Of a stretch of DNA of 64,000 bases, positions 1,846-41,085 are shown piece by piece. The first letter of the stretch is position 1. The number at the start of each line of letters is the position of its first letter. Under the pieces are notes generated by a model. The model had not been told where the DNA came from. It worked only from the letters and a program-made list of their open reading frames with translations, and ran no database searches. The translations under genes and the position numbers were made by a program. Source of the stretch: Nitrospirales bacterium (GTDB lineage Bacteria > Nitrospirota > Nitrospiria > Nitrospirales > UBA8639); the NCBI GenBank assembly GCA_031315915.1, contig JALDRK010000020.1, forward strand, positions 211 to 64,210. Direction: 5' to 3'.

Positions 1846-3480
1846 ATGACTGTCACCCTCCTGCCTGATAAATCATCCCAGTTTAAGAAATTGCTGCGAT
1901 CTCCACAGTTGGAATTTATCTGTGAAGCCCACAATGGCCTGAGTGCCAAGATAGTGGAAGAAGCCGGATTCCAAGGCATTTGGGCGAGCGGTTTGTCCAT
2001 TTCTGCCCAATTTGGCGTACGCGACAATAACGAGGCCAGTTGGACACAGGTCTTAGACAATCTGGAATTCATGTCCGACGCCACGCGCATTCCCATTCTT
2101 TTGGATGGCGACACCGGGTATGGCAATTTCAATAATATGCAGCGCCTGATCCGGAAACTGGAACAGCGGCATATCGCCGCCGTCTGCATTGAGGACAAGC
2201 TGTTCCCCAAAACCAATAGTTTCCTGAAAGGGGAAGCCCAACCCCTTGCCGACATGGAAGAATTTTGCGGCAAGATCAAAGCGGGTAAGGATGCCCAGTC
2301 GGATCCTGATTTCTGCATCATTGCCCGCGTGGAAGCCTTTATTTGCGGCTGGGGACTGGCCGAAGCCTTACGTCGTGCCGAAGCCTATCACCAGGCCGGA
2401 GCTGATGGCATCCTGATCCACAGCGCACTGGCGGTGCCCGATGAGATCCTAGCCTTCAAACGTGAATGGGGCGACCGCTGCCCGGTCGTGATTGTGCCGA
2501 CGAAATACTACGCCACCCCCACGGATGTGTTTCGGCAGCATGGCATTTCCCTGGTTATTTGGGCCAATCATATGCTTCGGGCGTCGGTCGCCTCTATGCA
2601 AGCTACGGCCCGTACTCTTCAGGAGCAAGAAAATTTATTGTCGATCGAGGACGAAATCATTTCCGTCTCGGAAATTTTTCGATTGCAAGGCGCGGCCGAG
2701 CTCTTAGAAGCTGAAAAACGTTATCTTCCCAAAACTGCCGAACGGGCTTCGGCCATTGTCCTGGCAGCATCCCGCGGCGATGAACTCGGGGAACTGACGG
2801 AAGACAAACCCAAAACCATGGTCAACATTCGCGGCGTGCCTCTGTTGTCTCACATTGCCGACGCGTACAATAGCATGGGCATCAAAGATATCCTGGTGGT
2901 ACGGGGATACAAAAAAGGAGCGGTGAATCTGCCAAACCTGCACTATGTCGATAACGACGAATTTGCAGACACCGGCGAATTGTATTCTTTACGCAAAGCC
3001 CTTCAGGCCAAACGTTCCCATCCACAAGATACCATCATTTCGTATGGGGATGTCTTATTCAACACCTATATTCCACAGGCTCTGCTTCAGGCCAAGGATG
3101 ATTTCGTGATTTTTGTGGATAGCGACTGGAAGGAAAAAACCAGCTACAACCGTCTCGGCGGATTTGCGGAATGTACCGCTCCCAACTCCCGTAAAGCTTT
3201 CAATACCCAGATTCATCTCACACAACTGGGAACGGCCATCGCTCCGGACAAGATTCACGGTGTGTGGATGGGATTTTTCAAAGTCTCCGCACCAGGACTG
3301 GCGCCTCTACAGGAAATCCTAGCTGATCTGTTAAAGAACCCCGCCCACCGCAAAGCCGGCATGGCCAGCCTATTTCAAGAAATGCTGAAAAGACGCTATT
3401 CAATTAGAGTACTGTATACGGTGGGGCACTGGTTGGACATCAATAGCCTGGATGACGTCGTCCAAGCCGGCAGCTTTTAA
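1846..3480 (+). CDS. pepM: phosphoenolpyruvate mutase fused to a C-terminal nucleotidyltransferase domain
   Basis: The N-terminal ~290 aa carry [10 protein letters not shown] and the PepM-discriminating EDKX5NS motif ([10 protein letters not shown], aa 116-125). The C-terminal ~240 aa carry an NTP-transferase signature ([31 protein letters not shown]). Confidence 0.85.
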
Positions 3481-5272: not shown

Positions 5273-6520
5273 CTATCGCAACATATGAATAAAGAGGCCG
5301 TCGCGGAGCTTGGGTTCGAACCACGTACTTTTGGGCGGCATGATTTGATCAGCATCAGACACGGCCATGAGTTGATCCACTGTCGTCGGAGACAGCCAAA
5401 AGGCAACGGCCCATTCACCCCGATCCACCATGGCGGCCAATTTCTCAGGCCCTTTGACCCCACCGACAAAATCAATTCGTACATCCGATCGTTGATCTTT
5501 GATCCCTAACAAAGGATCCAGCACCCGTTCCGTCAACACCGCCACGGCCAAATCCCGAACCGGATCGTTCTTGATCGCATCCAATTCCGATTGGGAAAAT
5601 TTCGGTTTCGCTCGATGCCATCGGCCTTCAACATACATATCGAATCCCAGGTCAGGTGGATGCCCCGGTTGAGAGGTCGACTGCACCTCAAAGCGTTCCC
5701 CAATCGCCTTGAGCAATTGAACCGATGTGTGCCCGTGTAAATCCCGCACCACCCGGTTATAAGGGAAGATTTGTAATTGATCGTGCGGAAAAATCACCGC
5801 TAAAAATCCATCTTCCGGTTTGAATGCCCCGGATTTGGCTGACTCTTGACGGGCCGCACGCACACGGCTGGCGGCAGCGGATCGATGGTGCCCGTCGGCA
5901 ATATACAAAGCCGGAATAGTCCGAAAGGCTTCGACAATTTGTTGAACTCGGGATTCCTCACGAACGCTCCACACCGTATGCTCAACAGTATCCGATGCGA
6001 CAAACTGCACATCCGGCTTGGCGTTCGTCACTTGCTCGAACCAGTTGTCGACGGCGGGAGTATGGCGGAAAAACAGCAGGACAGGACCGGACTGCGATTC
6101 ATGGGTTTGGATCAGCTGAACACGATCATTCTCTTTCACCGGTCGAGTCAGCTCGTGCTTTTTGATAATCCCCTGATCGTACTCTTCCACCGAGGCCAGA
6201 GCCACTAACCCCGTTTGCATATGCGTGCCCCATTTCTGTCGATAGACCCCCAATATTGGCCGCGCCTCCCGGGTAAGGATTCCGCCTTGAATAAGCTCCT
6301 GAAGTTTCCGGGCACCATGTTCATACACCTCCGGCGAATAGGGGTCGATGCCATTCTGCAATTCCAGCTCAGCCCGGCTAATACGCAGGAAGCTATGTGG
6401 ATTACCCTCTGCCTGTTGACGAGCCTCCTCCAACGAGACCACGTCGTAGGGAGGCGCGGCCACTTGCGCAGCCTGTTCAGGTCTGGGTCTCAACGCACGA
6501 AAAGGTGTAATCAGAGCCAT
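5273..6520 (-). CDS. DUF1015 family protein
   Basis: 415 aa. The N-terminus MALITPFRALRPRPEQAAQVAAPPYDVVS is typical of DUF1015. AAGGAGAGG lies upstream of the ATG. Confidence 0.8.
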   Translation of the reverse strand: MALITPFRALRPRPEQAAQVAAPPYDVVSLEEARQQAEGNPHSFLRISRAELELQNGIDPYSPEVYEHGARKLQELIQGGILTREARPILGVYRQKWGTHMQTGLVALASVEEYDQGIIKKHELTRPVKENDRVQLIQTHESQSGPVLLFFRHTPAVDNWFEQVTNAKPDVQFVASDTVEHTVWSVREESRVQQIVEAFRTIPALYIADGHHRSAAASRVRAARQESAKSGAFKPEDGFLAVIFPHDQLQIFPYNRVVRDLHGHTSVQLLKAIGERFEVQSTSQPGHPPDLGFDMYVEGRWHRAKPKFSQSELDAIKNDPVRDLAVAVLTERVLDPLLGIKDQRSDVRIDFVGGVKGPEKLAAMVDRGEWAVAFWLSPTTVDQLMAVSDADQIMPPKSTWFEPKLRDGLFIHMLR

Positions 6521-7391
6521 ACGGTTCCTCTCCTTTAGTATTTCAATTCACAACAACATCCGGGTCCTGTTCTTACCATAACTATCCAGGACCTGGATAT
6601 GGGAATTTCCACCCATTCAGATGGAGTCCTTTATAGGTCGGATTGCCCACACCTTTCGTCAATTTTTTCAATGGTGGGCAATTTCCGGAGAATACGGTAT
6701 CGGGATGTGAGAGGTATTTTCGGACCTAGCCCAGACTGACAAGCAAGCTGTAATGACCGGAAGCCTCTATCGGGGCGTTTTACTATTCACTCTCTGTTTT
6801 GGCAACCTGCTCCCATTATGGTTTTATGGCATTCTCCATCTACGCCTCTCGAAAACCGTGAAATCCTTATTACGCCAATGTCACCGAGACTCAAGACTGT
6901 TCTATAGATTGATATTGACAAGATCCTTTCAAGTAGTATTTTATAGCCTTGAGTCCGTATGGGAGGATCATCACTCCTCCAGCCATCCGCGATCAACCCT
7001 TGTTGTATGCGTGTTTCCAATACCACCCCCCCTCCTCTCTCCCGGTTTGGCCAATATTCCTGGTTGTGCCAACTGCTTGGATGGTCCCTATTCTTGGTAA
7101 GCTGCAGCCATCAGGTGGTAAGGACGGATCCCGACTCCATGATTATCAAAAATCATGGAACCCGCCCCATCACCAAACTCATCGTGAAGCCCTGCAACAA
7201 ACCGGCCCGGGAGTTTAAGGAAATGGCCCAAAATATCAGGCCAGGCACCATGAAGTTTATCCTCCTCTATCCAGGCTGCTTTGATGCAGATGCCCTGGAT
7301 GAAAACGGAGAAATTATGGCCACTCAATATAAGGTACGGATTCCACCCCAACTACGGTGGAATATTTATTAAATCGGTTGGTGTCTTTGTA

Positions 7392-8342
7392 ATGACATCC
7401 CCAATTCGTCATGGCTTCACAGGCTTCTTCCTGATTCTCGTCTCTCACATATTCCTAGCCTGTAGTGCTCCTTATTACCTGGTGACCTCTGACTTTGTGG
7501 TGGCGGACAACCAGGAAGCCCCTCCGGAAATCGTGGAAAGCCCAAGTTATCTTTCAGCCATACCTCAGATTCAATATCTGACCGTGAAAGCTCCTGAGGG
7601 TTGCGCCAACGAAACCGCCACACAAAGTTCCGGAGAAGCCGTAGGACAGAGTCTGCTGCTCAAAACGACCTGCGGCATCGAAATGTCCGAACTGGAGCGC
7701 GCACTCACGAAAGCGGGATTCCAGGTCATTTCGTGGAATGTGCTTCAAAACAAAGTCGCGAAAGAGGAACTGACTCCTCATGCCGCTTCCAAGGAACTCG
7801 GAGCGGAAGTCTTGTTTCAAATAAATTCCCTGGAACGGTCGATCATCCAAGCGGGTCACAATGCACGGTGGGAAAGGCATTTTTACGAATCCAATCCAGA
7901 AGGCGAGCAACTGAAACCCGTGTCTTTGCCGCCCAGGGAAGGCCACCAACTCCTGGACCATATTAAGGAAAAAGAGACTTCTCTTCTCAGTCAAGAACGG
8001 TTAGGCGTCACGATGAATGCCAGTGCTTCATCTGTCAAAACAGGAGAGACTATTTGGTTTTACGAATGGACACATGCCGAAGCCCGTGAGGACAACGAGG
8101 CCGTGAAGGTATTAGCCGTCTGTGATAACGGAACATGCCGGGCAATCTCCCGACAAGATCAGAAGAAATCGGAAGAGGCAGCATTGATATCAGGTAGTAC
8201 CGAAGCCATTTCCAAGCAGAAAAGCGTCAAGGATCGACAAAACGCCATCTACCATAGACTGTTGCGTGCATTGGTCACGAACCTGGCTCATTCATTTAAA
8301 CACCCTTCCCTGACATCTCCCCACCAGCCACAGAGTCCATAA
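7392..8342 (+). CDS. putative lipoprotein, function unknown
   Basis: ORF 7281..8342. Internal ATG 7392 gives MTSPIRHGFTGFFLILVSHIFLAC|S, a lipobox-like sequence. Confidence 0.6.
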   Translation: MTSPIRHGFTGFFLILVSHIFLACSAPYYLVTSDFVVADNQEAPPEIVESPSYLSAIPQIQYLTVKAPEGCANETATQSSGEAVGQSLLLKTTCGIEMSELERALTKAGFQVISWNVLQNKVAKEELTPHAASKELGAEVLFQINSLERSIIQAGHNARWERHFYESNPEGEQLKPVSLPPREGHQLLDHIKEKETSLLSQERLGVTMNASASSVKTGETIWFYEWTHAEAREDNEAVKVLAVCDNGTCRAISRQDQKKSEEAALISGSTEAISKQKSVKDRQNAIYHRLLRALVTNLAHSFKHPSLTSPHQPQSP

Positions 8343-8910
8343 AAATACTTTTCTGACATTCGTAACCTCACGGCCATCAAACTGATTGAAAGACAAGTCC
8401 GTCCGAGCGATCCGGAAATGCTCACTCAAAGAAATACCCTCCTAATGGGGTATAAAATATTTCTATTCGTTTCCTCCCAGCTCAACGAGCTGCCGAAACC
8501 TTGTTGCCCCTAGAAACAAAACCTTCAATAGCCAAAATTGAACCCAACGGAGTGCCTTTCAAGGCTCCTCGATATCCCTGATCAGAGGCGCTGCCGAGAG
8601 CGATTAGAATATTGTTTCATTTTTCTGTTGGTTTGTTCAGATTTTTTCACATATTTATGACTTTCGGTTTTCCTAATATAAGCACATATACCCCTTTTGA
8701 GGTATGCACCATCCATCAGACTTCCCCATAATTTCCCCTGTCAAACTCAGTCGCCTTCGTTGATTTTTCCCCGAAAATATCTCTCTTAACTCTTTAGAAA
8801 ATTTTTACGTTCCCTCCACGCCATTTCTCTTGTATTTTTTTTCATTTGTGTGGGATGATATGAAAATCAATAAGGGCTTAATTTTTCCTCATTTTTATAG
8901 GGAGGTCGTG

Positions 8911-9099
8911 ATGGCTGGAATTTCCCACAAAAAAATTTTCATGGAACCACAATTAACTCCACAGGGCTCATGGCAGGATTTAACTGGAACCTTCGGCCGT
9001 TACAATACCAGCGGCGGCCATAACCACAGCGGAAAAAAATGGGGAGGTTGGGAACGTATTTTAAATAGCTTGTGGAGTCATTGGAGGGGATCGCGCTAA
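8911..9099 (+). CDS. 62-aa candidate RiPP precursor peptide with a lasso-type leader motif and a Trp-rich C-terminus
   Basis: ATG 8911 lies 5 nt after GGAGG (8901-8905). F10-x2-P13-x-L15-x3-G19-x5-T25-x fits the YxxPxLx3Gx5Tx motif. A strong terminator and RRE/kinase genes follow. Confidence 0.6.
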   Translation: MAGISHKKIFMEPQLTPQGSWQDLTGTFGRYNTSGGHNHSGKKWGGWERILNSLWSHWRGSR

Positions 9100-9125
9100 A
9101 CGATTTCAACCATTGGCATTTGAAA

Positions 9126-9154
9126 GGGGGACCTGGTGGTCCCCCTTTTTTTTT
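9126..9154 (+). terminator. rho-independent terminator after the peptide gene
   Basis: GGGGGACC-tggt-GGTCCCCC followed by nine T, 27 nt after the stop codon. Confidence 0.8.
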
Positions 9155-9354
9155 GATCGCCCACCAACCCGACCCTTTTTTTTCCTCACTTTCTATCCGA
9201 CAAGACTGTTCAGAACAATCCTTTCATACACAAAGGCCTGGCAGCCCAGCCATGCCGAACTTTGCATATTCATAGAGACAGGCGCGCACATTTATGAATT
9301 TATACTTTCATGGCGTGTAATCCGTAATGTAAAAGTTTCGATTCCCGTACATTC

Positions 9355-10350
9355 ATGCGTCAACAATTCTCTTTTCATGATTCCTCTCTTATCCTTGAAG
9401 TACAGGGCTTGGACGAAATGCCTCCGCCTTATCTGGTCGGACTTCTTTTTGATTTTTGTTGGGAACCTTATTCGGGAGATCTTCCTTCACTACTACGCCT
9501 TGAGATCATTGACGGTTCACCGCCTCCTTCGAGCGACGGTCTGGCTTCGCAGGAAGTGTTCAAGTTACCCGACGGGGTACGATTGTCATTTTTCGGAAAA
9601 AATGCGCTGATTCAACTCCATGACATTCAAGGTCGCCTGAAATTTTCTGAAGGCCGGTGTTCAGTCTACGTTAACTCCCAATTTCCGGAGTACTCTCCGG
9701 AAGCCTTTTGTTCGTTTTGGATGGCCATCCTGATTTCCCTTCTTCAAAGCCGGGAAACCTATATGATTCATGCCGCGGGACTCGGGACTCCCGAGGGAGA
9801 AGGAGTCATCTTCGTGGCCCCCTCCGGTAGCGGAAAATCCACATTGACCCTTGGACTTATTCGTAAAGGATGGACCTATCTTTCAGATGACATTTTGTTT
9901 CTTCGATCATCGGGCGCCTGCATTGAGGCTTTTGCAGGACGGAAGACTTTTTACGTCGTCAAAGAACGGGCAGAGCAATACGAAGATTGGCCGTTTGGAG
10001 AGTCTGATTGTCCCGACCGGGATGGAAACCCCAGGCAGGAGATTCTTGTTCACCAACGGTACCCCATGCAATTTCATGGAAGGACCAGGCCTGGTGTCGT
10101 CGTTCTTCCCGCCATTGTCCGCCGTTCTAAAAGTTGCCTCATCCCGCTGGAGCGGGGGGCGGCCATCAAAGATATGTTACGGGAAAGTTCGATCGGTTTG
10201 ACCGGGCAACAGATCTTGCCGGGACAACTCGCGGTGATTTCCAGGCTGGTGGGACAATGCCAAGTCTTCAGGCTGGAAGCGGGAAAAGATCTTTATCAAC
10301 ATCCTGAATTTTTTTCAGATCTTTTGACACGGCAGAGTATTCGATCTTGA
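9355..10350 (+). CDS. HPr kinase/phosphorylase-related kinase (HprK-like, peptide-kinase type)
   Basis: 331 aa. The central segment HAAGLGTPEGEGVIFVAPSGSGKSTLTLGLIRKGWTYLSDDILFL matches the HprK C-terminal P-loop domain. The start codon is uncertain because there is no clear RBS. Confidence 0.75.
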   Translation: MRQQFSFHDSSLILEVQGLDEMPPPYLVGLLFDFCWEPYSGDLPSLLRLEIIDGSPPPSSDGLASQEVFKLPDGVRLSFFGKNALIQLHDIQGRLKFSEGRCSVYVNSQFPEYSPEAFCSFWMAILISLLQSRETYMIHAAGLGTPEGEGVIFVAPSGSGKSTLTLGLIRKGWTYLSDDILFLRSSGACIEAFAGRKTFYVVKERAEQYEDWPFGESDCPDRDGNPRQEILVHQRYPMQFHGRTRPGVVVLPAIVRRSKSCLIPLERGAAIKDMLRESSIGLTGQQILPGQLAVISRLVGQCQVFRLEAGKDLYQHPEFFSDLLTRQSIRS

Positions 10351-10388
10351 AACCAAGAATACCTCCGGGACCTCAAGGAGCATTGCCA

Positions 10389-10676
10389 ATGGTGACTATC
10401 CAATCAATCCTTCAACCACAGGCCTCTGTGGTCTACACCGAAATGAATGAGGAAGAAGCTGTAATTTGGCACATGGACATCCAGGAAATGTTCACCCTCA
10501 ATTTAACCGGCATACGCATTTGGACGGGGATCCAGGAGGGTCTGTCCGTTATGGCCATCAGTCATCGGCTGGTCCAGGAATTTGAGGTTGAAGAAGCCCA
10601 GGCCACGGCGAGTGTGATCGCGTTAATTCAGGAATTGCTGACGCGTGATCTTGTCACCATTCAAGAGCCTGCGTGA
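10389..10676 (+). CDS. PqqD-family protein (RiPP recognition element-like)
   Basis: ORF 10347..10676. ATG 10389 is preferred (AAGGAG 8 nt upstream). ..FTLNLTGIRIWTGIQEGLSVMAISHRLVQEFEVEEAQATASVIALIQELLTRDLV is a typical PqqD/RRE pattern. Confidence 0.75.
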   Translation: MVTIQSILQPQASVVYTEMNEEEAVIWHMDIQEMFTLNLTGIRIWTGIQEGLSVMAISHRLVQEFEVEEAQATASVIALIQELLTRDLVTIQEPA

Positions 10677-10830: not shown

Positions 10831-11487
10831 TTATGATGCCATTTTAATCAGTTCCCGGATGGCCCCGCTCACACCCTCAAAAATCTGATGGGGCTTCGCC
10901 GTGCCGTACATATACGCCGGAGTGGTGATGACTTTATTGCTGTGATCCACCACATATTTTTCCACCGCGCAGTTTTGATGTTTGGCCCCGGTCTTTTCGA
11001 GTTCCGACGCCGTGCCCGCATCCTCTCCAATGGTCACGTTCACCCCTTTATCTCCTAAGGCCAACGCCATGATAGCCGGTGCGATACAAATGGCGGCAAT
11101 CGGCTTCCCACTGCCGCTGAATTCTTTGACGATTCTGGCCACTTCCGGATCAATCTGCCCTCCGCTGCCTTGCTTGGCAAAATCACAGAGATGCAACGCC
11201 GCACCAAATCCTCCGGGAAACGCAAGGGCATCAAAATCCTGGGCTTTGAGTTTTTCCAATGGCTGGATATCTCCACGAGCGATGCGAGCGGCTTCCTGCA
11301 AAGCATTTCGCTTCTGAACGGTAGATTTCTGCGTCAGATGATTGACTTCGTCCACCTCCTTGTTGGGAGCGAACACGCGATAACTCGCTCCGTTTTGACC
11401 AATGGCGATGAGCGTACTGATGGCCTCGGTGATCTCGGCTCCGTCCAAAAATCCACAACCTGAAAGAATGACGGCCACGTTTTTCAT
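10831..11487 (-). CDS. elbB: DJ-1/PfpI family protein, ElbB-type
   Basis: 218 aa with MKNVAVILSGCGFLDGAEI..., FDALAFPGGFGAA and PIAAICIAP, an ElbB-like arrangement. Confidence 0.85.
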   Translation of the reverse strand: MKNVAVILSGCGFLDGAEITEAISTLIAIGQNGASYRVFAPNKEVDEVNHLTQKSTVQKRNALQEAARIARGDIQPLEKLKAQDFDALAFPGGFGAALHLCDFAKQGSGGQIDPEVARIVKEFSGSGKPIAAICIAPAIMALALGDKGVNVTIGEDAGTASELEKTGAKHQNCAVEKYVVDHSNKVITTPAYMYGTAKPHQIFEGVSGAIRELIKMAS

Positions 11488-11706
11488 AATTCCCTCCTTT
11501 GCAATAAACCATAACCTTGGGAGATCGGCGTGAGCATCTGAACAGTCCCAATTTTTGTCGTGATGTATTACGCTAGTATGACTCCATTCAAAAGGTCAAT
11601 CCGGTTTTTCCTTAAAGACTCTCTCCTGACCACAAGGGTCGAAGACAGATGTCATCATGGTATTCTTTCCAGCAGAGATGAACAACCCTTTTATGGGAGG
11701 TGGAGG

Positions 11707-12033
11707 ATGAGCCACAATCGGTTTGATTTTCGCGGAACGGGATTCAGTTGTCTCTGGCTGTTTATCTGGACCTGGGTACTCACCGTGATGACGTTCGGTT
11801 TGTTTTTTCCCTGGGCCTACTCGGCGCAACAACGTTGGATTTCGGAACATACCTTCATCGACAATCGACAACTGGTGTTTTGGGGAACAGGATTTGGCTT
11901 CTTTGGAAACTGGCTGCTGATCATGGTGCTCACCATCATCACCTTCGGCTTGTACATGCCTTGGGGATTTTGTCGCCTGAAACGCTGGCAGACCAACAAT
12001 CTGGCCTTTGCCGATGACGTGCACACAGGGTAA
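11707..12033 (+). CDS. small membrane protein, DUF898/YjgN-like
   Basis: ORF 11560..12033. ATG 11707 is preceded by GGGAGG. Two hairpin-like TM pairs are present (LTVMTFGLFFPWAY and LTIITFGLYMPWGF). Confidence 0.55.
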   Translation: MSHNRFDFRGTGFSCLWLFIWTWVLTVMTFGLFFPWAYSAQQRWISEHTFIDNRQLVFWGTGFGFFGNWLLIMVLTIITFGLYMPWGFCRLKRWQTNNLAFADDVHTG

Positions 12034-12051
12034 GCCCACACAGGTCATTCC

Positions 12052-13311
12052 ATGAACATTCTCATCTTAGCTGTTGGCAGTTATGGCGATGTGTTGCCCC
12101 TGGTGGGACTAGGGCGTGAATTGCGTACACACGGACATACCATTACGCTTTTCACCAACGGCCACTTCGCCTCTCTCATGGAACAGGCACAATTGCATTT
12201 TGTTCCCTTGGGATCGGCGGAGGATTATGATGACATTGCCGACAACCCGGATTTGTGGCATCCCCACAAAGGCTGGCGGCTTATTATGCAACGCCTGGCC
12301 TCGCCACAGTTACGAGAGGCCTATCGCGTCCTGTGCCGACATATCCGACAGGGAGACACCATCATGGTGAGTTCCACATTGGGCTTTTCAGCCAGACTGG
12401 TCCAGGAAACCCATAGCATACCCCATGCTACAGTGCATTTTTCTCCCGGGGTGTTCCATTCCGCCCATGCCCCGCCCAAAATGCCCAATCTCGTATTACC
12501 CGATTGGCTGCCCATCTGGTTCAAGCGAGGGTGCTGGTCCCTAATCAATCACACCGTGATCGATCCGGTCCTCAAACCTTATCTCAACACGTTTCGCCGG
12601 GAACTTGGATTGCCTCCGGTTTCACGGATTTTTCATTCTTGGGCGCATTCGCCAGACCTGGTGGTGGGCATGTTTCCCGACTGGTTTGCGCCGGTTCAGC
12701 GGGACTGGCCTTCAGGCACACACCTCACCGGCTTCCCACTGTATGACGAAGCCCATGATGCCGAACTCACAGCTAGCGTTGAGCTGTTTTTAGAAGCTCA
12801 CTCTCAGCCCTTGGTATATACACCGGGTTCGGCCAATAAACATGGACGATCATTTTTCAGAGAAGCCGCCGAGGCATCTCAACAACTGGGGCGCCCGGCA
12901 ATTTTTCTGACGCGATATCCCGAACAACTCCCTCCCTCGCTTCCGAAGTCCATTCGACACTTTGCCTATGTTCCGCTCAGCCGGCTCCTCCCACACTGTA
13001 CGGCACTCATTCATCACGGCGGCATCGGTACCTGTTCGCAGGCCATGCGGGCCGGAATCCCTCAGCTCATTCAACCTTTGGCGTTTGACCAGTTCGATAA
13101 TGCCGCGCGAACGGTCACATTAGGAGTCGGGAAAATGATTCTATCACGGGCATTCCGTAGCCCGCTCATCGCCCGCACATTGGAAGGCATGTTGGCAAAT
13201 CCTGATACCCATCAACGATGCCAACACCTCGCCCAACGCGTACGGGAGACCAATGGCCTCTCTTTAGCCTGCCAGATAATCCAAAAGCAGCTCATTAATC
13301 GAATCTTCTGA
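12052..13311 (+). CDS. GT1-family (MGT/UDP-glycosyltransferase-like) glycosyltransferase
   Basis: 419 aa with N-terminal MNILILAVGSYGDVLPLVGLGRELRTHGH and C-terminal HHGGIGTCSQAMRAGIPQLIQPLAFDQFDNA. Confidence 0.8.
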   Translation: MNILILAVGSYGDVLPLVGLGRELRTHGHTITLFTNGHFASLMEQAQLHFVPLGSAEDYDDIADNPDLWHPHKGWRLIMQRLASPQLREAYRVLCRHIRQGDTIMVSSTLGFSARLVQETHSIPHATVHFSPGVFHSAHAPPKMPNLVLPDWLPIWFKRGCWSLINHTVIDPVLKPYLNTFRRELGLPPVSRIFHSWAHSPDLVVGMFPDWFAPVQRDWPSGTHLTGFPLYDEAHDAELTASVELFLEAHSQPLVYTPGSANKHGRSFFREAAEASQQLGRPAIFLTRYPEQLPPSLPKSIRHFAYVPLSRLLPHCTALIHHGGIGTCSQAMRAGIPQLIQPLAFDQFDNAARTVTLGVGKMILSRAFRSPLIARTLEGMLANPDTHQRCQHLAQRVRETNGLSLACQIIQKQLINRIF

Positions 13312-13379
13312 GGCTTCCTCTGATTTTGTCTTCTTTTAACTTGATGAACTTTGCAGGGCCTTGGTAGAGTGCCTTCGCT

Positions 13380-13913
13380 GTGTCTGATCCTGTAACGTTC
13401 CAATTCAAGAAGAAAAATCCGAAAGCCACTATCTCCACCAAGTTGGGAGATATTGAAATCCGGTTTTTTACCGATGACGCCCCGCGTCATGTCGAAAATT
13501 TTTTAAACCTGATCAGACTGAAATTTTATGACGGTTTGTCCTTTCACCGCATCATCCCCGGCTTTATCATTCAAGGCGGGGATCCCTTCACCAAAGAACC
13601 GGATCGGAGCCTTCACGGCACCGGGGGACCGGGCTTTAGCCTTCCCCCCGAAACCAGCGACCGGCCGCATCGGCGTGGAGCGGTTTCCATGGCCAAAGTC
13701 CCCAGAACCGAGGACTCGACCCGCGACGTGGCCGATAGCGGATCGCAATTTTTCATTTGTGTGGAAGATCAGGGCAGTCTGGACCGGAGATACACGGTCT
13801 TCGGCAAAGTGACGAAGGGCATGAACGTGGTGGATACCATTGTCGCCCAGGCAAGAGATGAGCGGGACAACCCACTGGACCCCGTCCGAATGACCATATG
13901 GGCAGAGGAATAA
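13380..13913 (+). CDS. cyclophilin-type peptidyl-prolyl isomerase
   Basis: GTG start. Contains FHRIIPGFIIQGGDP, SMAK and GSQFFIC cyclophilin motifs. Confidence 0.85.
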   Translation: MSDPVTFQFKKKNPKATISTKLGDIEIRFFTDDAPRHVENFLNLIRLKFYDGLSFHRIIPGFIIQGGDPFTKEPDRSLHGTGGPGFSLPPETSDRPHRRGAVSMAKVPRTEDSTRDVADSGSQFFICVEDQGSLDRRYTVFGKVTKGMNVVDTIVAQARDERDNPLDPVRMTIWAEE

Positions 13914-34382: not shown

Positions 34383-37300
34383 TTACATCCTCTCAATTTT
34401 CGTACAACCGTTAGAGGCCAAGGGGACGACTTCTATCCGGTCCAACCGTAGAAACAAGAGTTTACACCCTTTTACTTCCAGACCCAAGCTCTGGGAAACC
34501 GCTTGGGCATAGAGTTCCGCCTGGCAGCGGTATTCTTCTAACCGGGATGGCACCTGCCTTTCGTCAATGGCATCGGTTTTGTAGTCGCCTACCCAATAGT
34601 CCCCGTCTTTTTCATACACCACGTCCAACACCCCTTCCAGGATTCCCATGTTAGCCGGGTCGGATGGACCCGTTCTTTGCGTATGAAAAACCCATGGAAC
34701 GGTCACCGGAACTTCCCGCCCTAAGATCCGTGCTTGCTGCAGTTCACGAAAAATCCGTGTCCGAGGAAATGCGCTCAACATCTCCTTCATCTCCAAAAAC
34801 AATGTACTTTCGGATTCCAAAGAGAGCGCGGCGCGTGGAATCCGGCAAAACTCATCAAGGGAGCGATGAAACGTCTCCTCATCTTGAGAAAAAGGACAAA
34901 GCTCGAGAAATCGATGAATCAGAATACCCAACTGCGGACCGGTTCTGAACTCGTTGCCACTAGCCCAGTCCCAGGCATTTGCTCTCCCAGGTTTTTGCCA
35001 GGAGGAAGGTGTCGTCCAAGCCATCGATTCCTGAGCCTTCCGCCATCGTTCCTCGCGTGCTTTCCATCGATCTGAAGAGGGAGCAACGCAACCAGCCTCC
35101 GCCGGCGAATTCTGTCTGCTCCCCACGGTTTTCGGTTGGCTTGATCGGGAACCCACGACGGTTTGGGAAAAAGAGACCGGCCCCACCTGTACAATTGAAC
35201 AATGGGGATTTCCCAAGTCCTCTCCAATCATTTCACGCAACAACCCCAAAGGCGTCGCACCTCCTCGCTGAGCGGTCAATCCGCCGGATAAGACCAATCG
35301 GTCTTTTGCCCTGGTCATACCCACATACAGAACCCGACGTTGCTCGGCTTCCTCCTGTTCCCGTTGTTTTTCCCAGAGAGGCAACTGACTCGCATTGCAC
35401 CAACGTGAAAACGTGCATCCATACAACCCGCTGATCCAATCCCGTGTCAAACTCGCGCCACTCTCCTGTCCTCCGGCTTTCACATGCAAGCCGGGCAATA
35501 TCACAACGGGAAATTCCAATCCTTTGGCTTTATGGATTGTCAGCACCCGAACCGCATCCAGCGAGTCTTCCGCCAAGGGCGCTTCGGCTTCTTGAGGATG
35601 CGTACGCAGATGGTCGACCAACCGACTTACGATCCCGGAAATGGTCAAGGCCGAATCCCGACCCATCTCCACGATCATGGCTCGCAGTTTCCATAGGTTG
35701 ACCACGGCTTGTTCGCCATGACTGGATGCGGCCGCTAACTCTACCAGAGGAAGCTCGATAAACAACTGATTCAGAAGGTGTGAAATGGAGCACCTTTTTG
35801 ACGACCGGTGAAGGGCTGCCAGACGCTCACACAGGCTACGCACGGATTCCTTTCGGTCACTCTGCCAGGCTTCCAGCCATTGCAAATGGCTCACATCCAG
35901 ACGAACGCCTGCAGAATCCTCGCGCGCCAATGCCATGATGTCCGAATCCGGCACCCCACCCAACGAGGACCGAAGCATTCCGATCAACGCGATGCTATCC
36001 GCCGGGTCATCGATAAGCCGCAGGACGTTGACCAGATCAATGACTTCTTGTCGCTGATAAAAATGTCGTTCCCCATCCGTCACATAGGGAATGCCTCGAC
36101 GCCGCAACGCCTCGACATACCATTGGGCATTCGTCAATTTTCGAAACAACACCGCAATATCTCCTGGGCGTATTGACTGCATCGAGGATTTGTGATGCTC
36201 GCTTCGCCTGCCTAAACTGAGTGACTCCTGTATCCAATCACCCAGCCACTCGGCCTCTGCCCTTGAAGCCCGCTCCGTATCCCATTCTCGCTCTCCTTCA
36301 GGTTGTGCCAAGACGAACAGTTCGACCCCTGCTCCCTTCCCCTCCTTCGACTCGCGTCCAGCCTGGAGCGGAACATGAGGGGGCTGGACCTGATCTTTCT
36401 GGATCAACAGCCGGTCAAACACCGCATTGACGACCTGAAGAATCGTACGATGGCTTCGAAAATTGGTGGTGAGGGTACACATCAGCGCCCCGGCTTGAAC
36501 CAGTTTATTCACCACCTGATCAAAAGCCGCAATGTCCGCACGACGAAACGCATAGATGGATTGCTTCGGATCGCCCACAATAAACAGTTTTCCCGGTACC
36601 ACCTGAATGTCTTGCCAGGATCGGACATGCTGACCGGAGCACTCGGCCAAATACAGCAGAATTTCATATTGCAACGGATCCGTATCCTGGAACTCATCGA
36701 TGAGAATGGCTTGATACTCCTGTTTCATCTGTTCCCGCACCAAGGGATAATCACGCAACAGATTCCGGACATTCGTCAGAAGTCCATCAAATCCGATCCA
36801 TCCCTGCACCCGATATCGTTGACGCACCCGTTCGACACAGGGGCTGATGAGCGCGAGCACCTGTTCCAATAGCGAATGGTTAATTTTGAGCACATGTTGA
36901 GCCGATTGGATGATTCGCTTAGCGAGTTGGAATTCCGTGGGATCCCAGTCGCGGGGAGCGGTTCCCACCGCCGACTCCAGGCCACCCTTTCCGCTCTCCA
37001 CCAAACCTTCGGTATCCAGCGTTTCACGATTCATCGCCTGCTCAAATATTCGGCATGCGGCTTCGAGACTCCGTTCGATTTTTCTGGGTTTCGGTCGTCG
37101 GTAAACCCGGAGAATCGCCTGAGCTTGTTCAGCCTTATTCATCAGCCACCGGCCGAGCACCCGCTGTTGGTGAAAATCGTTCGCTAAAACCGAAGTCCGT
37201 AATTCAGTCAATTCGCAGTCCTGGCGGGCAATCATCAACGCCAGCGACCGAACTTCCTGAATAGGTAGCCGTTGCAGTACCGATTCCCAACGGGCATGAG

Positions 37301-37853
37301 TGAGACCTCCGGGTCCTAATTCCCCCTCCAACCATGAGTCCCACATCTGGTCGAATAGTTCTTCAAAATGAGATCCGGCATCTTCCTGAAAATTTGGGGC
37401 CACGTGAGCCTCCAAAGGGTACAGGCGCAAGACCGACGCCGCAAAACTGTGCAGCGTGCGAATATGAGCCTTTTCCAGATCTTTCAAGGCCATTTCTGCG
37501 CGATCCCGAATCTTATCCGTGGAGAGAAGATACCGATCCTGAAACGCTCGCAACCCAGCACAGCCAGCCACATCCCCTTCACGCTCGCCCCGACATTCAT
37601 CCAATATCGCCTGAAGCCGCTCACGCAACCGGAGCTTCATTTCATTGGCCGCTTTATTGGTGAAAGTCAACGCCAATATATTCTCCAGCTTGATGGGGTG
37701 CGGTTCACCCAACACAGCATGCAGAAGGCGATTCACTAGCAAGGTTGTTTTCCCCGTACCGGCTCCCGCCAACACCACTACATTCCGATCGAACGTCGTT
37801 TCGGCAGCTTCGCGAGCGTCCGCATCGGGAAGATGGACTGACTCAGTCACCAT
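34383..37853 (-). CDS. addA: AddA-type ATP-dependent helicase/nuclease (UvrD-like helicase plus C-terminal PD-(D/E)XK nuclease)
   Basis: ORF 34383..37958. Start moved to MVTESVH, which gives an 11-nt overlap with addB. Walker A LAGAGTGKTT, LIDEFQDTD, and nuclease motif GVLDVVYEKDGDYWVGDYKTD. Confidence 0.85.
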   Translation of the reverse strand: MVTESVHLPDADAREAAETTFDRNVVVLAGAGTGKTTLLVNRLLHAVLGEPHPIKLENILALTFTNKAANEMKLRLRERLQAILDECRGEREGDVAGCAGLRAFQDRYLLSTDKIRDRAEMALKDLEKAHIRTLHSFAASVLRLYPLEAHVAPNFQEDAGSHFEELFDQMWDSWLEGELGPGGLTHARWESVLQRLPIQEVRSLALMIARQDCELTELRTSVLANDFHQQRVLGRWLMNKAEQAQAILRVYRRPKPRKIERSLEAACRIFEQAMNRETLDTEGLVESGKGGLESAVGTAPRDWDPTEFQLAKRIIQSAQHVLKINHSLLEQVLALISPCVERVRQRYRVQGWIGFDGLLTNVRNLLRDYPLVREQMKQEYQAILIDEFQDTDPLQYEILLYLAECSGQHVRSWQDIQVVPGKLFIVGDPKQSIYAFRRADIAAFDQVVNKLVQAGALMCTLTTNFRSHRTILQVVNAVFDRLLIQKDQVQPPHVPLQAGRESKEGKGAGVELFVLAQPEGEREWDTERASRAEAEWLGDWIQESLSLGRRSEHHKSSMQSIRPGDIAVLFRKLTNAQWYVEALRRRGIPYVTDGERHFYQRQEVIDLVNVLRLIDDPADSIALIGMLRSSLGGVPDSDIMALAREDSAGVRLDVSHLQWLEAWQSDRKESVRSLCERLAALHRSSKRCSISHLLNQLFIELPLVELAAASSHGEQAVVNLWKLRAMIVEMGRDSALTISGIVSRLVDHLRTHPQEAEAPLAEDSLDAVRVLTIHKAKGLEFPVVILPGLHVKAGGQESGASLTRDWISGLYGCTFSRWCNASQLPLWEKQREQEEAEQRRVLYVGMTRAKDRLVLSGGLTAQRGGATPLGLLREMIGEDLGNPHCSIVQVGPVSFSQTVVGSRSSQPKTVGSRQNSPAEAGCVAPSSDRWKAREERWRKAQESMAWTTPSSWQKPGRANAWDWASGNEFRTGPQLGILIHRFLELCPFSQDEETFHRSLDEFCRIPRAALSLESESTLFLEMKEMLSAFPRTRIFRELQQARILGREVPVTVPWVFHTQRTGPSDPANMGILEGVLDVVYEKDGDYWVGDYKTDAIDERQVPSRLEEYRCQAELYAQAVSQSLGLEVKGCKLLFLRLDRIEVVPLASNGCTKIERM

Positions 37854-40800
37854 GAATACCCTGTTTTTTGAGGAAACGAAATTCTCTTGCCAGAGGAAAT
37901 CGTTGCACTCTTGCCCAGGAAGGATGGTGCCGAGATCGACAAGCACCGGCCCAGGCACAATTGCGGCAATGGGTTCCCGAGATGAAAAAAAACTTGCCTT
38001 CTTTTATGGCATTGGTCCATTTGAAAATATTTTGCGCCAGTTGCTTCCCCGCTGCCCCGACCCAGATGTCCGCGGCAAAGGAGGCCGATCCTATTGAAGA
38101 TATTTGGTAGGGCCGGATAAAACGAAACTCCACGACTTTGACCGGCACGGAAGTTTCCGCATACTTTGAACGAGGCTCCTCGCTTTGAAACGAAGAGAAC
38201 AACGCATAGAATGGAGCCTGGAGCCGTTGACCCCGAACCGCATCGACGAGTAAATCGGGGTCCGGGATATCTTTCGCGCGACTCCAGGAAAATTTATAAT
38301 CCACGATGCGGACCCCCTGCCCGGCCGACCCTTGATCGACACGATCCACCCGTCCGAAAATGGGCAAATCATGTTCTTGTTCATGGGACCATGGTGAAAA
38401 TCTTCCTGTTCCTTCAGCCTCATGTAAGATGGGCACCCAGCCTTGTTTCACAAATTCTTCTTGATCCAGGGCCACCACATTTCCGATCAAACCGCTCAAT
38501 CGCTTGAGCAGACTTCGCCAGAGCATGAGGTATCCCGTTCCATACACACGGGCATAGATCCGGGTCTTCTGCTGAATGAATTCATGAATCATTTCTCGGA
38601 GATGTCCACCTTCAATAGGCTCGCCCGGCCATCCGTCCTGTGCCAGCTTCTCATATACGGTCTGCAACATCTCGTGTCCCAATTGGCCCCAGACGCGAGC
38701 GGGAAGTTCCCTGGTCACAGGATCGCGGATATCTTGTGTCCTTAACACTTCCTGCATCCAATACCGCAACGGACATTGGACATAGCGCTCCAGTGCCGTG
38801 GGCGATAAACCTCGTATCTGCAGATTTTGCCAATGGATATGATCGGGTTCCACAAGACCGTCGAACGAACCAACGGCCAAATCGCTTCGCTCAAGAACCG
38901 CCAGAGCCCGCAGGCCATTGTCCAATATCACTTGCCATTGACTGGGACCCGAACGATCTCCGAAGTATAGTTGTCCTTGCAGCAACGAAAGGAGGCGACC
39001 TTCTTGTGGAGTATACAATTCAGCCGCACAGACTGAATGGGTTTGACGCTCCACCAGGCTCAACGGCACATGCAGAAGGGAAGGGTTCACGACACCGGAA
39101 TGTTGAATATCCCTTGAAAGGAAGGAAGACGGAATGAGAGGCCGCCCCTGACTATCGGCTCGTTGGTACAGTAAATACATGCGCTCTTTCGCCGAATTCT
39201 CCAACAGGGCAAACAATAACGCTTCCTCATCGAGGCCTTTCAATTTTTCATCAACCTTATAGCCTAAACTCTCCGCCAGGACCCGGCGATCCCGATCTCG
39301 TAAAAAGGCATCTTCCCTGACCACTCGAGGAAACACCTGATCATTCAATCCGAGTATCATCAAGGCACGAAACCCACATCCTCTTGCCGCCATGACGTCC
39401 ATCACCTGAACCCCAACCTGACTTTGGCCCGGAAGAGGCAGTCGCTCTTCTTCCAGGAGTTCCCGAAATCGCTCCACCCAGAGTTCGGCCGTGATCTGTT
39501 TTTCGAAGCGATCCCATTGTCCAAGCATCCTCATGATACGCTGCACACATTCGCCGAGCTGTTGGCCAAGAAGTTCCTCATTCGGATTTTGACCCGGGAC
39601 CTGAGAATCATCTGGAACACATAAACAATTCTGACACATTCGTTCGAAATGAGCGGTCATTTCCCCCACCGACCCGGATGAGGGACACGAGTCAACTTCC
39701 TGGATCAACCGCATCAGATCATGGACGAATGCGCTCACATCGTCTTCCAGCATATGAGGAGGCAAACGATGCGAACCGAACAACTCTTGAAGGGAGGCCG
39801 CATCTCTCAACAAGTCGGACAATCGTTCCCAGTCAGCCAACCCTCGGACTATTCGCGTCTGTCGAACCAGGCGCCACCACCAATGAGCATTCTCCGACAA
39901 TGAGCGGGAAGACTGTTCCCTGGAACGGTAATAGGGAGACGTCAGAATATCCATGACCGCCTGAACCGGAAAATCGTCCTGCTTCAAACCGGCCAATTGC
40001 CACCAAATTTTCGCCCAGGGTTCTTCGAGAAATGGTCGGGTCCCTGTGGTCGAAAAAGGAATCCGATGCTCATGAAAGATCCTGCTCAGATACGGACTAT
40101 ACCCTTCCAGGTTTCTGGCCACGATGCCTATTTCGTGAAAGGCATAGCCATCGGTTTCCACCAAACGCAGAATGGATTGACACGCGAAATGTAATTCTCC
40201 TTGCTCCCCAACCGCACTCACGATGTGCTTGGTCGGCCGCATGGACATTGGCTGCTTACCCACGTGGGCAGTGCGACCAGTCCCCACGTATTGACGCTCT
40301 ACTCGCCCTTTCAGCAAGTACCGTTCAAGAAACCGTTGCGCAAACTGATAGGCAGGTCCTTCTTCCAAAGGAAAGAACACTCTCACGGGCCTGGCACGGG
40401 CCACTTCTTCCAACAGAGACAACTGCACCTGGGTTAAGTCATAAAACCCGTAATAAAAAATATGTGACCATCTCGAAATAAGAGAAGAGTGAGAAACCCA
40501 TGGAAGAATCGATTGGGCCAGATCATCAGGCAATCCCACATTGAGGTGCCGGCTCCATTGTCCAACGGCAGCCTGGATAGAAAATACATGTGATAGGCGC
40601 TCGCGGCTCGGATCCTCAAACATCCCTTCTTGAATGGCACGCGACCCGACCTCAGGGTCGACTTGCCCTTCTTGCAGATCTCGAATGGTGCGCCAGATGG
40701 CCTGACGCATTCCCCGTGAGCGGTCGAGTGAACCTTCAGAGCCAAAGGACAGACCCAATTGCCCCAATAACCATGGCACCATCCATTCATACCAGCGGTC

Positions 40801-41085
40801 ATCGACCAATTCGAGAGGCGTGGCGGAGGAATCGACAGATCGGTCGAGGAGAGCTCGTTCGGCATGCAGGCGGAGGGCCAATTGATGGAACGTCAAAAAA
40901 GACACATCAAAGAGGGAGAGGCCCTGCTCGACACATAAAACCCATTGCACACGTCGCCGCATGACATCGGAGGGAACAATGATCGCCAGGGGGACTTGTA
41001 TATCATCCGCTTTAAACAGACGGACCGACTCAACTAACGATGTTTCGAGAGAAGGGTAAAAGGAGCCCGTCAGCAGAGTAAACAT
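37843..41085 (-). CDS. addB: AddB-type helicase-nuclease subunit with a C-terminal Fe-S 'staple' nuclease domain
   Basis: 1080 aa. Nuclease motif RIVDYKFS and terminal CRNCAWAGAC (C-x2-C-x5-C). Located directly upstream of addA. Confidence 0.8.
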   Translation of the reverse strand: MFTLLTGSFYPSLETSLVESVRLFKADDIQVPLAIIVPSDVMRRRVQWVLCVEQGLSLFDVSFLTFHQLALRLHAERALLDRSVDSSATPLELVDDRWYEWMVPWLLGQLGLSFGSEGSLDRSRGMRQAIWRTIRDLQEGQVDPEVGSRAIQEGMFEDPSRERLSHVFSIQAAVGQWSRHLNVGLPDDLAQSILPWVSHSSLISRWSHIFYYGFYDLTQVQLSLLEEVARARPVRVFFPLEEGPAYQFAQRFLERYLLKGRVERQYVGTGRTAHVGKQPMSMRPTKHIVSAVGEQGELHFACQSILRLVETDGYAFHEIGIVARNLEGYSPYLSRIFHEHRIPFSTTGTRPFLEEPWAKIWWQLAGLKQDDFPVQAVMDILTSPYYRSREQSSRSLSENAHWWWRLVRQTRIVRGLADWERLSDLLRDAASLQELFGSHRLPPHMLEDDVSAFVHDLMRLIQEVDSCPSSGSVGEMTAHFERMCQNCLCVPDDSQVPGQNPNEELLGQQLGECVQRIMRMLGQWDRFEKQITAELWVERFRELLEEERLPLPGQSQVGVQVMDVMAARGCGFRALMILGLNDQVFPRVVREDAFLRDRDRRVLAESLGYKVDEKLKGLDEEALLFALLENSAKERMYLLYQRADSQGRPLIPSSFLSRDIQHSGVVNPSLLHVPLSLVERQTHSVCAAELYTPQEGRLLSLLQGQLYFGDRSGPSQWQVILDNGLRALAVLERSDLAVGSFDGLVEPDHIHWQNLQIRGLSPTALERYVQCPLRYWMQEVLRTQDIRDPVTRELPARVWGQLGHEMLQTVYEKLAQDGWPGEPIEGGHLREMIHEFIQQKTRIYARVYGTGYLMLWRSLLKRLSGLIGNVVALDQEEFVKQGWVPILHEAEGTGRFSPWSHEQEHDLPIFGRVDRVDQGSAGQGVRIVDYKFSWSRAKDIPDPDLLVDAVRGQRLQAPFYALFSSFQSEEPRSKYAETSVPVKVVEFRFIRPYQISSIGSASFAADIWVGAAGKQLAQNIFKWTNAIKEGKFFFISGTHCRNCAWAGACRSRHHPSWARVQRFPLAREFRFLKKQGIHGD

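Follow-up and report, generated by a model that had tools for sequence, protein, structure and literature searches.

A lasso-type leader peptide beside an HprK-like enzyme and a PqqD-family protein: a candidate peptide phosphorylation cassette in Nitrospirales

What is a lasso-type leader peptide used for at a locus that encodes a kinase-like enzyme but neither the lasso protease (B2) nor the lasso cyclase (C)? The question is raised by a 64,000-nucleotide stretch of a Nitrospirales metagenome-assembled genome (MAG; contig JALDRK010000020.1), hereafter the window, in which a gene for a 62-residue peptide is followed on the same strand by genes for a 331-residue HprK-type P-loop protein and a PqqD-like protein of about 95 residues. 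A first-pass annotation of the window had already pointed out this arrangement and read it as a minimal leader-guided peptide phosphorylation system. From the sequences and by analogy with a characterised lasso kinase, we think it on balance probable that these genes form a self-contained cassette, derived from phosphorylated-lasso machinery, in which a recognition element (RRE) for peptides made by the ribosome and modified post-translationally (RiPPs) would guide Ser phosphorylation of a linear peptide.

Conservation of the precursor and its enzyme genes in Nitrospirales

The features of the locus, all on the forward strand, are as follows.

8901..8905, +, Shine-Dalgarno sequence GGAGG, 5 nt ahead of the precursor ATG at 8911, read from the sequence
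8911..9099, +, precursor peptide gene, 62 amino acids (aa) plus stop, product MAGISHKKIFMEPQLTPQGSWQDLTGTFGRYNTSGGHNHSGKKWGGWERILNSLWSHWRGSR
8911-8988, +, predicted leader, residues 1-26
8938..8988, +, leader recognition unit F10-M-E-P13-Q-L15-T-P-Q-G19-S-W-Q-D-L-T25-G26, of the lasso type YxxPxLx3Gx5Tx with Phe replacing Tyr
8989-9096, +, predicted core, residues 27-62
9007..9015, +, core T33-S34-G35 (core positions 7-9), with Ser34 as predicted phospho-acceptor from its T-S-G context
9122..9156, +, intrinsic-terminator-like hairpin directly 3′ of the precursor gene, 12 bp stem with 7 G-C pairs and a T-run
9355..10350, +, 331-aa HprK/PEPCK-fold P-loop protein, predicted peptide kinase, containing VIFVAPSGSGKSTL...LSDD
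9769-9771, 9823-9843 and 9886-9891, +, kinase-like catalytic core: H139, P-loop S157-T163 and D178-D179, respectively
10389..10676, +, PqqD-family RRE, lasso-B1-like, 95 aa, matched by Pfam PqqD; alternative start TTG at 10347

The ribosome-binding site (GGAGG-N5-ATG) and the leader residues F10, P13, L15, G19, T25 and G26 lie exactly where the first-pass annotation had placed them. The resulting spacing, F10-x2-P13-x-L15-x3-G19-x5-T25-G26, is that of leaders in lasso clusters, where a YxxPxL motif at leader positions -17 to -12 and Thr(-2) as the B2 recognition residue have been described (PMC10368454). The leader motif by itself is weak evidence, because the pattern [FYW]xxPxLx3Gx5Tx, which matches once in the six frames of the window, is expected there 0.24 times from composition. 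The peptide open reading frame (ORF) carries no annotation in the source MAG; an orthologous peptide (P0070) bears the NCBI name 'putative RiPP precursor'.

At least six Nitrospirales lineages keep the precursor, kinase-like and PqqD genes side by side; their kinase identities are 57-100%. As the first-pass proposal required, a small ORF with a like leader lies upstream of the orthologous kinase-like/PqqD genes at loci L001/L002, L003, L016 and L017 (kinase identity 57-72%); L003 has two tandem precursor copies, each with its own terminator, and two further orthologous peptides are P0069 and P0337. In the eight Nitrospirales peptides the segment K-x-F-[VIM]-E-P-Q-L-[TS]-x-x-G-S-W-Q-[DE]-L-T-G is nearly unchanged and leads into a short conserved core start (x-F-G-x-Y-N-T-S-G-G, G-F-S-D-F-Q-C-S-G-K or G-G-A-Y-Q-C-S-G-Y), while the C-terminal core tails are hypervariable: they carry GW repeats or SGYQ repeats, or resemble an amphipathic cationic helix. 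Residues 10-28 of the window peptide differ from those in L001 only by the conservative change M11V, with three synonymous changes in the DNA. The GGAGG is unchanged in the aligned upstream regions of four orthologous precursor genes, and the terminator hairpin is kept, with altered stem bases, 3′ of those in L001, L016, L017 and both L003 copies. Because leader, ribosome-binding site and terminator are conserved while the tails diverge, we take the small ORF to be a genuine RiPP precursor with its maturation genes. A hidden Markov model (HMM) of the leader matched exactly once per precursor (expect values (E) of 1e-8 to 1e-13) and nowhere else in about 240 kb of loci.

The ratio of nonsynonymous to synonymous substitution rates (dN/dS) was 0.12-0.14 for the kinase-like gene and 0.02-0.11 for the PqqD gene; both enzyme-side genes are under purifying selection. 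Different genes lie upstream of the precursor in L017 than elsewhere, and the upstream flank is therefore not part of the conserved cassette. Both metagenome scans, one with a five-kinase alignment and one with a degenerate leader DNA pattern, came up empty in the JGI metagenome contigs, so the Nitrospirales clade is absent from that collection. No compositional anomaly that would point to horizontal acquisition was found at the locus.

In a separate comparison of the peptide genes at 8911-9099 of the window and 9450-9635 of L001, the proportion of synonymous differences (pS) was about 0.3, against 0.62-0.75 in the neighbouring kinase-like and PqqD genes. This low synonymous divergence suggests an extra constraint at the nucleotide or codon level, for example on expression level or RNA structure.

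The core holds no Asp or Glu at positions 7-9, which are T-S-G, and its earliest acidic residue is at core position 22; the macrolactam acceptor that the first-pass annotation had reported missing is indeed absent. A second S-G in the window core is S40-G41.

The enzyme-side proteins and their cyclase-less relatives

The source MAG annotates the two downstream genes as a hypothetical protein (the kinase-like gene) and a PqqD family protein. The true start of the latter is most likely the ATG at 10389 rather than the TTG at 10347, as it has GGAG 8 nt upstream and gives 95 aa, the length of the orthologues. The product matched Pfam PqqD at E 5e-13 (49.6 bits against a cut-off of 23.4), as is expected of a lasso RRE. 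Its top NCBIfam matches were two lasso PqqD chaperone models, both under their cut-offs (40.7 against 80 and 31.6 against 70 bits), and its top PDB sequence matches were the lasso B1 proteins 9x90_B, TbiB1 (5v1u) and TfuB1 (6jx3). Identity was 33% over 70 aa to BsfB1, the B1 protein of a phosphorylating lasso cluster discussed below (E 7e-11), and 41% to the PqqD protein of the L004 cluster.

The HprK domain that the first-pass annotation had named in the 331-aa protein was recovered, weakly and over the catalytic core only. The precomputed Pfam label of the protein is PF27840 'ScmC', a partly weak match. Residues about 130-186 gave sub-threshold matches to HprK_rel_A (4e-11), HPr(Ser) kinase (9e-5) and Pfam Hpr_kinase_C (6e-4), and neither the window protein nor the three distant homologues scanned attained the curated cut-off of HprK_rel_A, HprK_rel_B, ScmC or HprK/P. 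The residues H139, G158, G160, K161, S162, T163, D178 and D179 are invariant across 30 homologues, and a profile of this 30-sequence family aligned with the HprK/P structures 1ko7, 1jb1, 2qmh and 3tqf (E about 5e-6) along the stretch that contains the catalytic His, the P-loop and the DD pair. An AlphaFold (AF2) model of the protein had a predicted local distance difference test score (pLDDT) of 87 and a predicted template modelling score (pTM) of 0.86; its best Foldseek matches were phosphoenolpyruvate (PEP) carboxykinases, at E 5e-10 and a template modelling (TM) score of about 0.5 over about 360 columns. The HprK/P catalytic domain itself belongs to the PEP carboxykinase fold class. Clustered at 50% identity, the kinase-like family comprises 1,347 clusters at E <= 1e-30 and 10,626 at E <= 1e-10. 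A genome-collection scan with the 30-sequence alignment, whose pattern is that of a generic P-loop, gave among the matches listed a 47-residue P-loop match in Paracoccus (L008).

The first-pass statement that neither B2 nor C is encoded in these 64 kb held in every search. With three B2-like, two radical SAM (rSAM) and one NTP_transf_5 proteins as queries, tblastn found no match in the window. An HMM of 120 B2-like proteins (B2 family PF13471) found none in the window, L001, L003, L010, L011, L016 or L017; the same HMM recovered every B2 in the remaining loci at E 1e-37 to 1e-72. The Asn_synthase cyclase (PF00733) was not found in Pfam scans of the ten largest other window ORFs or in the Pfam lists of the syntenic loci L001 and L003, and neither B2 nor a cyclase lies within 10 kb on either side in L001 and L003.

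Stand-alone B2 genes occur elsewhere. At 7001-7522 of contig L015, a B2-like (Transglut_core3) gene lies amid housekeeping genes (DAHP synthase, Band_7/NfeD, poly(A) polymerase), with no precursor, RRE or kinase within 7 kb of it, which shows that B2 genes unlinked to a cluster do occur.

The cassette is no isolated oddity but a reduced form within a large uncharacterised family; its closest relatives have B2-like protease, rSAM and nucleotidyltransferase genes. The nearest full-length kinase-like homologues outside the Nitrospirales clade, at 30-37% identity, sit in the following larger clusters.

L004/L005 (L004 9492-13562), L006/L007 (L006 4309-7958) and L014 (862-6428): B2-like Transglut_core3 protease, small ORF, kinase-like, radical SAM, PqqD, NTP_transf_5; L014 has a DUF4915 gene between its kinase-like and radical SAM genes, and the L006/L007 contigs end ahead of the NTP_transf_5 position
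L009 (7270-11257): B2-like protease, small ORF, kinase-like, radical SAM, PqqD
L010 (3536-9756) and L011 (4906-11592): NTP_transf_5, secreted protein of unknown function, 1-2 small ORFs, kinase-like, radical SAM, sulfotransferase-like, PqqD; B2 not detected

Some of these clusters, which come from soil and other metagenomes, hold a sulfotransferase-like or methyltransferase-like gene. An Asn-synthetase-like cyclase is present in none of L004-L007, L009-L011 and L014, and no protein of these clusters attains any NCBIfam curated cut-off. In every distant homologue examined, a small ORF with the 17-residue leader unit lies immediately upstream of the kinase-like gene. Over F-x-[E/K]-P-x-[L/I/V]-x9-T-x, an alignment of fifteen precursors from 10 loci needs no gap, Thr(-2) is present in all 15, and the predicted cores start in register, for example with FF... 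in two different subfamilies; on NCBIfam lasso_leader_L3 (cut-off 19) the L004 precursor reached 18.1 bits. Whereas the cores of the relatives read FFGGF[S/T] or FFQxxTSG, those of the window clade read xFGxYNTSGG and continue into a long cationic aromatic tail. The window clade shares the leader unit, PqqD and kinase-like proteins with the L004-type clusters but has none of their B2-like protease, radical SAM and nucleotidyltransferase genes. Among the versions seen of this broad cyclase-less family with its lasso-type leader handling, the Nitrospirales cassette is thus the smallest, and parsimony makes loss of the B2, rSAM and nucleotidyltransferase genes its probable origin.

A separate peculiarity was seen at 7806-7952 of L009, where the predicted core is just 8 residues long (G-I-A-G-T-F-E-P). 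Its Gly1/Glu7 spacing resembles that of a lasso ring, yet the locus is without a cyclase.

Proposed mechanism, rival explanations and flanking genes

Under the reading that we favour, the precursor peptide would be made from its own small transcription unit, with a strong ribosome-binding site and a dedicated terminator. The lasso-B1-type PqqD protein would bind its leader via F-x-E-P-x-L and hand the peptide to the 331-aa HprK-superfamily P-loop enzyme, which with ATP/Mg2+ would phosphorylate a core hydroxyl, the likeliest acceptor being Ser34 of [T/C]-S-G and a further candidate Ser40. Leader removal, if any, would require a protease outside the window. The product should be linear and not a lasso, because the 64 kb contain no cyclase gene and core positions 7-9 have no Asp or Glu. 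The invariance of Thr(-2) may reflect either an influence of the -2 residue on phosphorylation, as in the Bsf system compared below, or a protease encoded elsewhere. The model predicts Ser34 of T-S-G as acceptor, F10, P13 and L15 as RRE contacts, and K161, D178 and D179 as catalytic residues.

Compared with the first-pass proposal, the lasso-type leader, the lasso-B1-like RRE and the HprK-superfamily enzyme are now joined by a precedent in the Bsf cluster (PMC10368454), and phosphorylation and a linear end product are kept as predictions. The specific suggestion of paeninodin-type phosphorylation at a C-terminal Ser had to be abandoned: the C-terminal residue of the precursors is R, K, F, D or S, with Ser in just one of them, and the model does not fit.

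Several observations weigh against the favoured reading. The matches to HprK-type models fall far short of the curated cut-offs and span just about 55 residues, the identity to the lasso kinase BsfK is 32% over 56 aa, and the kinase function of the 331-aa family is a prediction from sequence. The acceptor is core position 3 in BsfA, the Bsf precursor, and predicted position 7-8 in the window peptide. The nearest relatives always pair the kinase-like enzyme with a radical SAM protein, so that the native role of the enzyme may be coupled to chemistry that is missing here. Within the window, which is the extent of genome covered, neither an exporter nor a protease is linked to the cassette, and between the peptide gene and the enzyme genes lie 205 nt and a strong terminator. 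Finally, Thr(-2) is invariant without a nearby B2, a hint that a protease or further partners may be encoded outside the window.

This last point leads to the alternative that the cassette serves a larger pathway as a satellite, working with a B2 protease, rSAM protein, nucleotidyltransferase or cyclase encoded elsewhere to yield more than a linear phosphopeptide. The B2-recognition residue is kept in all 15 precursors, including those without a nearby B2, the closest kinase-like relatives have B2, rSAM and NTP_transf_5 in cis, and the unlinked B2-like gene of L015 offers a metagenomic example of the separation that would be needed. We nevertheless regard such a satellite as fairly unlikely, given that no partner gene lies in the 64 kb or within 10 kb on either side in L001 and L003, and that the -2 residue also tunes phosphorylation in the Bsf system (PMC10368454), so that Thr(-2) can be conserved without B2. 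It is a weak further argument that among the best 120 of 346 B2-like proteins from a search of 5.8 billion proteins none was named Nitrospirales, most matches being nameless. Alternatively, the 331-aa protein may be an ATP-dependent enzyme with a role other than that of a simple Ser kinase: modification of Thr(-2) or Tyr, activation of Ser for elimination or ring closure, phosphorylase activity as in HprK/P, or service as a nucleotide-dependent scaffold. The family is uncharacterised, with no paper on it found in an incomplete literature coverage, its full-length fold is nearer to PEP carboxykinase than to the minimal HprK domain, its gene overlaps the radical SAM gene in relatives, and the conserved core Ser/Thr occupies positions 7-9, the lasso ring-acceptor positions. 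Such other chemistry is improbable in our judgement, as every phosphotransfer residue of HprK/P and BsfK (His, P-loop and DD) is invariant, the homologues with a characterised activity all phosphorylate Ser (and Thr) in precursors, and no lyase or cyclase partner is present.

Two further explanations would deny the locus a present function. If it were the decaying remnant of a larger cluster whose product is no longer made, the missing B2, rSAM and nucleotidyltransferase genes of its nearest relatives would be accounted for; the three genes, however, are intact in at least six diverged lineages at dN/dS 0.02-0.14, their catalytic residues are invariant, the leader is kept with synonymous changes, ribosome-binding site and terminator are conserved, and L003 has even duplicated its precursor, which together make decay very improbable. 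The suggestion that the small ORF is a chance frame with a fortuitous motif match could appeal to the expected 0.24 motifs per window and to the absence of an annotation in the source MAG. It is refuted by the conservation of the ORF, its ribosome-binding site and its terminator in all orthologous loci and by the single leader-HMM match per precursor, and we give it practically no credence.

Beyond the window, the favoured phosphorylation cassette invites a wider reading. The combination of an HprK/ScmC-like enzyme, a lasso-B1-type RRE and a lasso-type leader could mark a widespread and undescribed RiPP class that has discarded the cyclase, in which phosphorylation of a core Ser (in T-S-G or GGF-S/T) is defining and of which the Nitrospirales cassette is the minimal form, with a linear phosphopeptide as finished product. 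We offer this only tentatively, as possible but rather doubtful. Such a class may keep the lasso leader-recognition and sometimes the leader-cleavage machinery, and in the B2-containing relatives the phosphate might activate the Ser/Thr at core positions 7-9 for ring closure onto the new N-terminus.

To our knowledge, phosphorylation in known RiPPs is a transient activation step (in lanthipeptides) or an optional decoration of lasso peptides. If the favoured reading is true, phosphorylation would here be the defining modification of a ribosomal peptide, and an RRE-guided kinase the sole enzyme of a conserved cassette. The locus would also provide a tractable three-gene system in which to follow the transfer of a leader peptide from a B1-type RRE to an enzyme that is not the lasso protease. 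Behind it stands a large, apparently uncharacterised family (the 1,347 clusters noted above) whose members combine lasso-type leader handling with rSAM and nucleotidyltransferase chemistry and have no cyclase, and this suggests a re-use of the lasso machinery in making non-lasso products.

The genes on both sides of the cassette were considered as possible parts of the system, and the upstream pair was rejected. Directly upstream, at 6959-7372 and 7392-8342 (+), lie two conserved lipoprotein-like genes of unknown function with lipobox-like signals, which have no Pfam or NCBIfam match and share 72-86% identity with the L001 and L003 counterparts. The L017 precursor has other neighbours on its upstream side and lacks the pair there, and the two genes are not homologous to the upstream genes of the distant clusters. 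Downstream, at 10831-13913, synteny with relatives extends over a DJ-1/PfpI gene (-) and genes for a DUF898 membrane protein, a 419-aa MGT/EryCIII-like glycosyltransferase and a cyclophilin; the cyclophilin end is seen just in L001 and L003, and the L016 contig stops inside the third gene. The synteny of these four genes does not reach beyond close relatives, DJ-1 runs on the opposite strand, and their involvement is unsupported. The core is rich in Ser-Gly, yet no evidence links the downstream genes to the peptide.

Elsewhere in the window, 5 kb upstream of the cassette, a 544-aa protein encoded at 1846-3480 (+) is a PEP mutase/NTP_transf_3 fusion by the Pfam labels of the syntenic L001 and L003 genes, which suggests phosphonate biosynthesis or activation. 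At 34383-41085 (-), an adjacent 1191-aa UvrD-helicase/PD-(D/E)XK protein and 1080-aa PD-(D/E)XK protein resemble an AddAB-type helicase-nuclease pair; about 115 nt are common to their two ORF calls. Two large ORFs at 42939-44732 (-) and 49967-51484 (+), of 597 and 505 aa, have no Pfam match at E <= 1e-5, and in the 511-aa protein encoded at 56051-57586 (+) DUF4236 and TPR repeats are joined to a DnaJ domain at the C-terminus.

Comparison with known systems

The closest characterised system is the lasso cluster bsfA/B1/B2/C/D/K/N of Bradymonas sediminis (Duan et al. 2023, PMC10368454), whose proteins we compared as translations of the gene sequences printed in that paper. Its HprK-like BsfK (340 aa) phosphorylates Ser3 of the core G-T-S-G-N; it acts just on the leader-bearing precursor, the core peptide alone being no substrate, and is greatly speeded by BsfB1, while the -2 leader residue modulates phosphorylation of BsfA (PMC10368454). 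The conserved motif of BsfK is formed by H148, G163, G166, G168, K169, S170, D186 and D187, of which H148, G163, K169, S170, D186 and D187 are required for catalysis (PMC10368454). The window enzyme, like BsfK a protein of about 335 aa, matched it with the family HMM (E 2e-13), with hhalign (probability 96.7% over 137 columns) and with blastp (E 5e-7), and the likeness is confined to these approximately 137 aligned columns. The H...G..G.GKS...DD motif of the lasso kinases is present in the window as H139, G158, G160, K161, S162, D178 and D179; position 155 is Ala, where most kinase-like family members have Gly.

The two leaders are also alike, reading I-Y-K-K-P-Q-L-T in BsfA and I-F-M-E-P-Q-L-T in the window, with x-x-x-P-Q-L-T common at -17 to -11; the -2 residue, in contrast, is Ile in BsfA and Thr in the window peptide. 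The Bsf cluster further encodes B2, the cyclase C, the transporter D and the nucleotidyltransferase N, and makes a lasso ring between Gly1 and Asp8, whereas the window has none of these genes and no ring acceptor. T-S-G, the acceptor context shown in BsfA, recurs as [T/C]-S-G in 8/8 Nitrospirales cores and in the L010/L011 cores; a shuffle test expects it in 2-6% of such peptides. This recurrence is suggestive only, because the motif was defined after the data were seen.

The paeninodin-type kinases PadeK, ThcoK and SyanK are HprK homologues as well and phosphorylate the linear precursor ahead of further maturation, at the C-terminal Ser and with little dependence on the rest of the peptide (PMC8498205). 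They sit in complete lasso clusters, unlike the window gene, which has no B2 or C beside it.

Pairs of an HprK-like P-loop protein and a PqqD-family peptide chaperone are likewise the common feature of the HPr-rel-A and SynChlorMet systems. These systems, defined in silico by Haft, reportedly flag related enzyme pairs whose substrate and function are not known. Compared with HPr-rel-A (TIGR04352/TIGR04353), the window proteins scored 42.5 against 200 and 20.6 against 35, and no PF14907 NTP_transf_5 partner is present in the window. Compared with SynChlorMet (ScmC/ScmD/ScmE/ScmF), they scored 12.9 against 125 on TIGR04249 and 25.2 against 100 on TIGR04248, and the window has no rSAM/SPASM partner. 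Two plasmid loci of the HPr-rel-A type (L012 and L013) had no ORF matching the leader HMM. In L012 (Crinalium epipsammum plasmid pCRI9333.04, record 5896-8559), the triad of PqqD family, nucleotidyltransferase and HPr kinase genes adjoins methyltransferase and glycosyltransferase genes.

With HprK/P (TIGR00679), the window protein shares the signature H...G.SG.GKS...DD and a PEPCK-like P-loop fold but differs in its N-terminal domain, and it scored 21.9 bits against a cut-off of 240, with residues 148-185 matched. HprK/P acts on HPr, whereas the predicted substrate of the window enzyme is a ribosomal peptide. In a literature coverage that was incomplete and excluded most subscription journals, we found no publication in which HprK/ScmC-like and PqqD proteins are described together with a lasso-type leader anywhere but in true lasso clusters. 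The parts of the cassette are all of known kinds, and what is new is their combination: a predicted stand-alone RRE-guided peptide kinase cassette with a wide cyclase-less family behind it.

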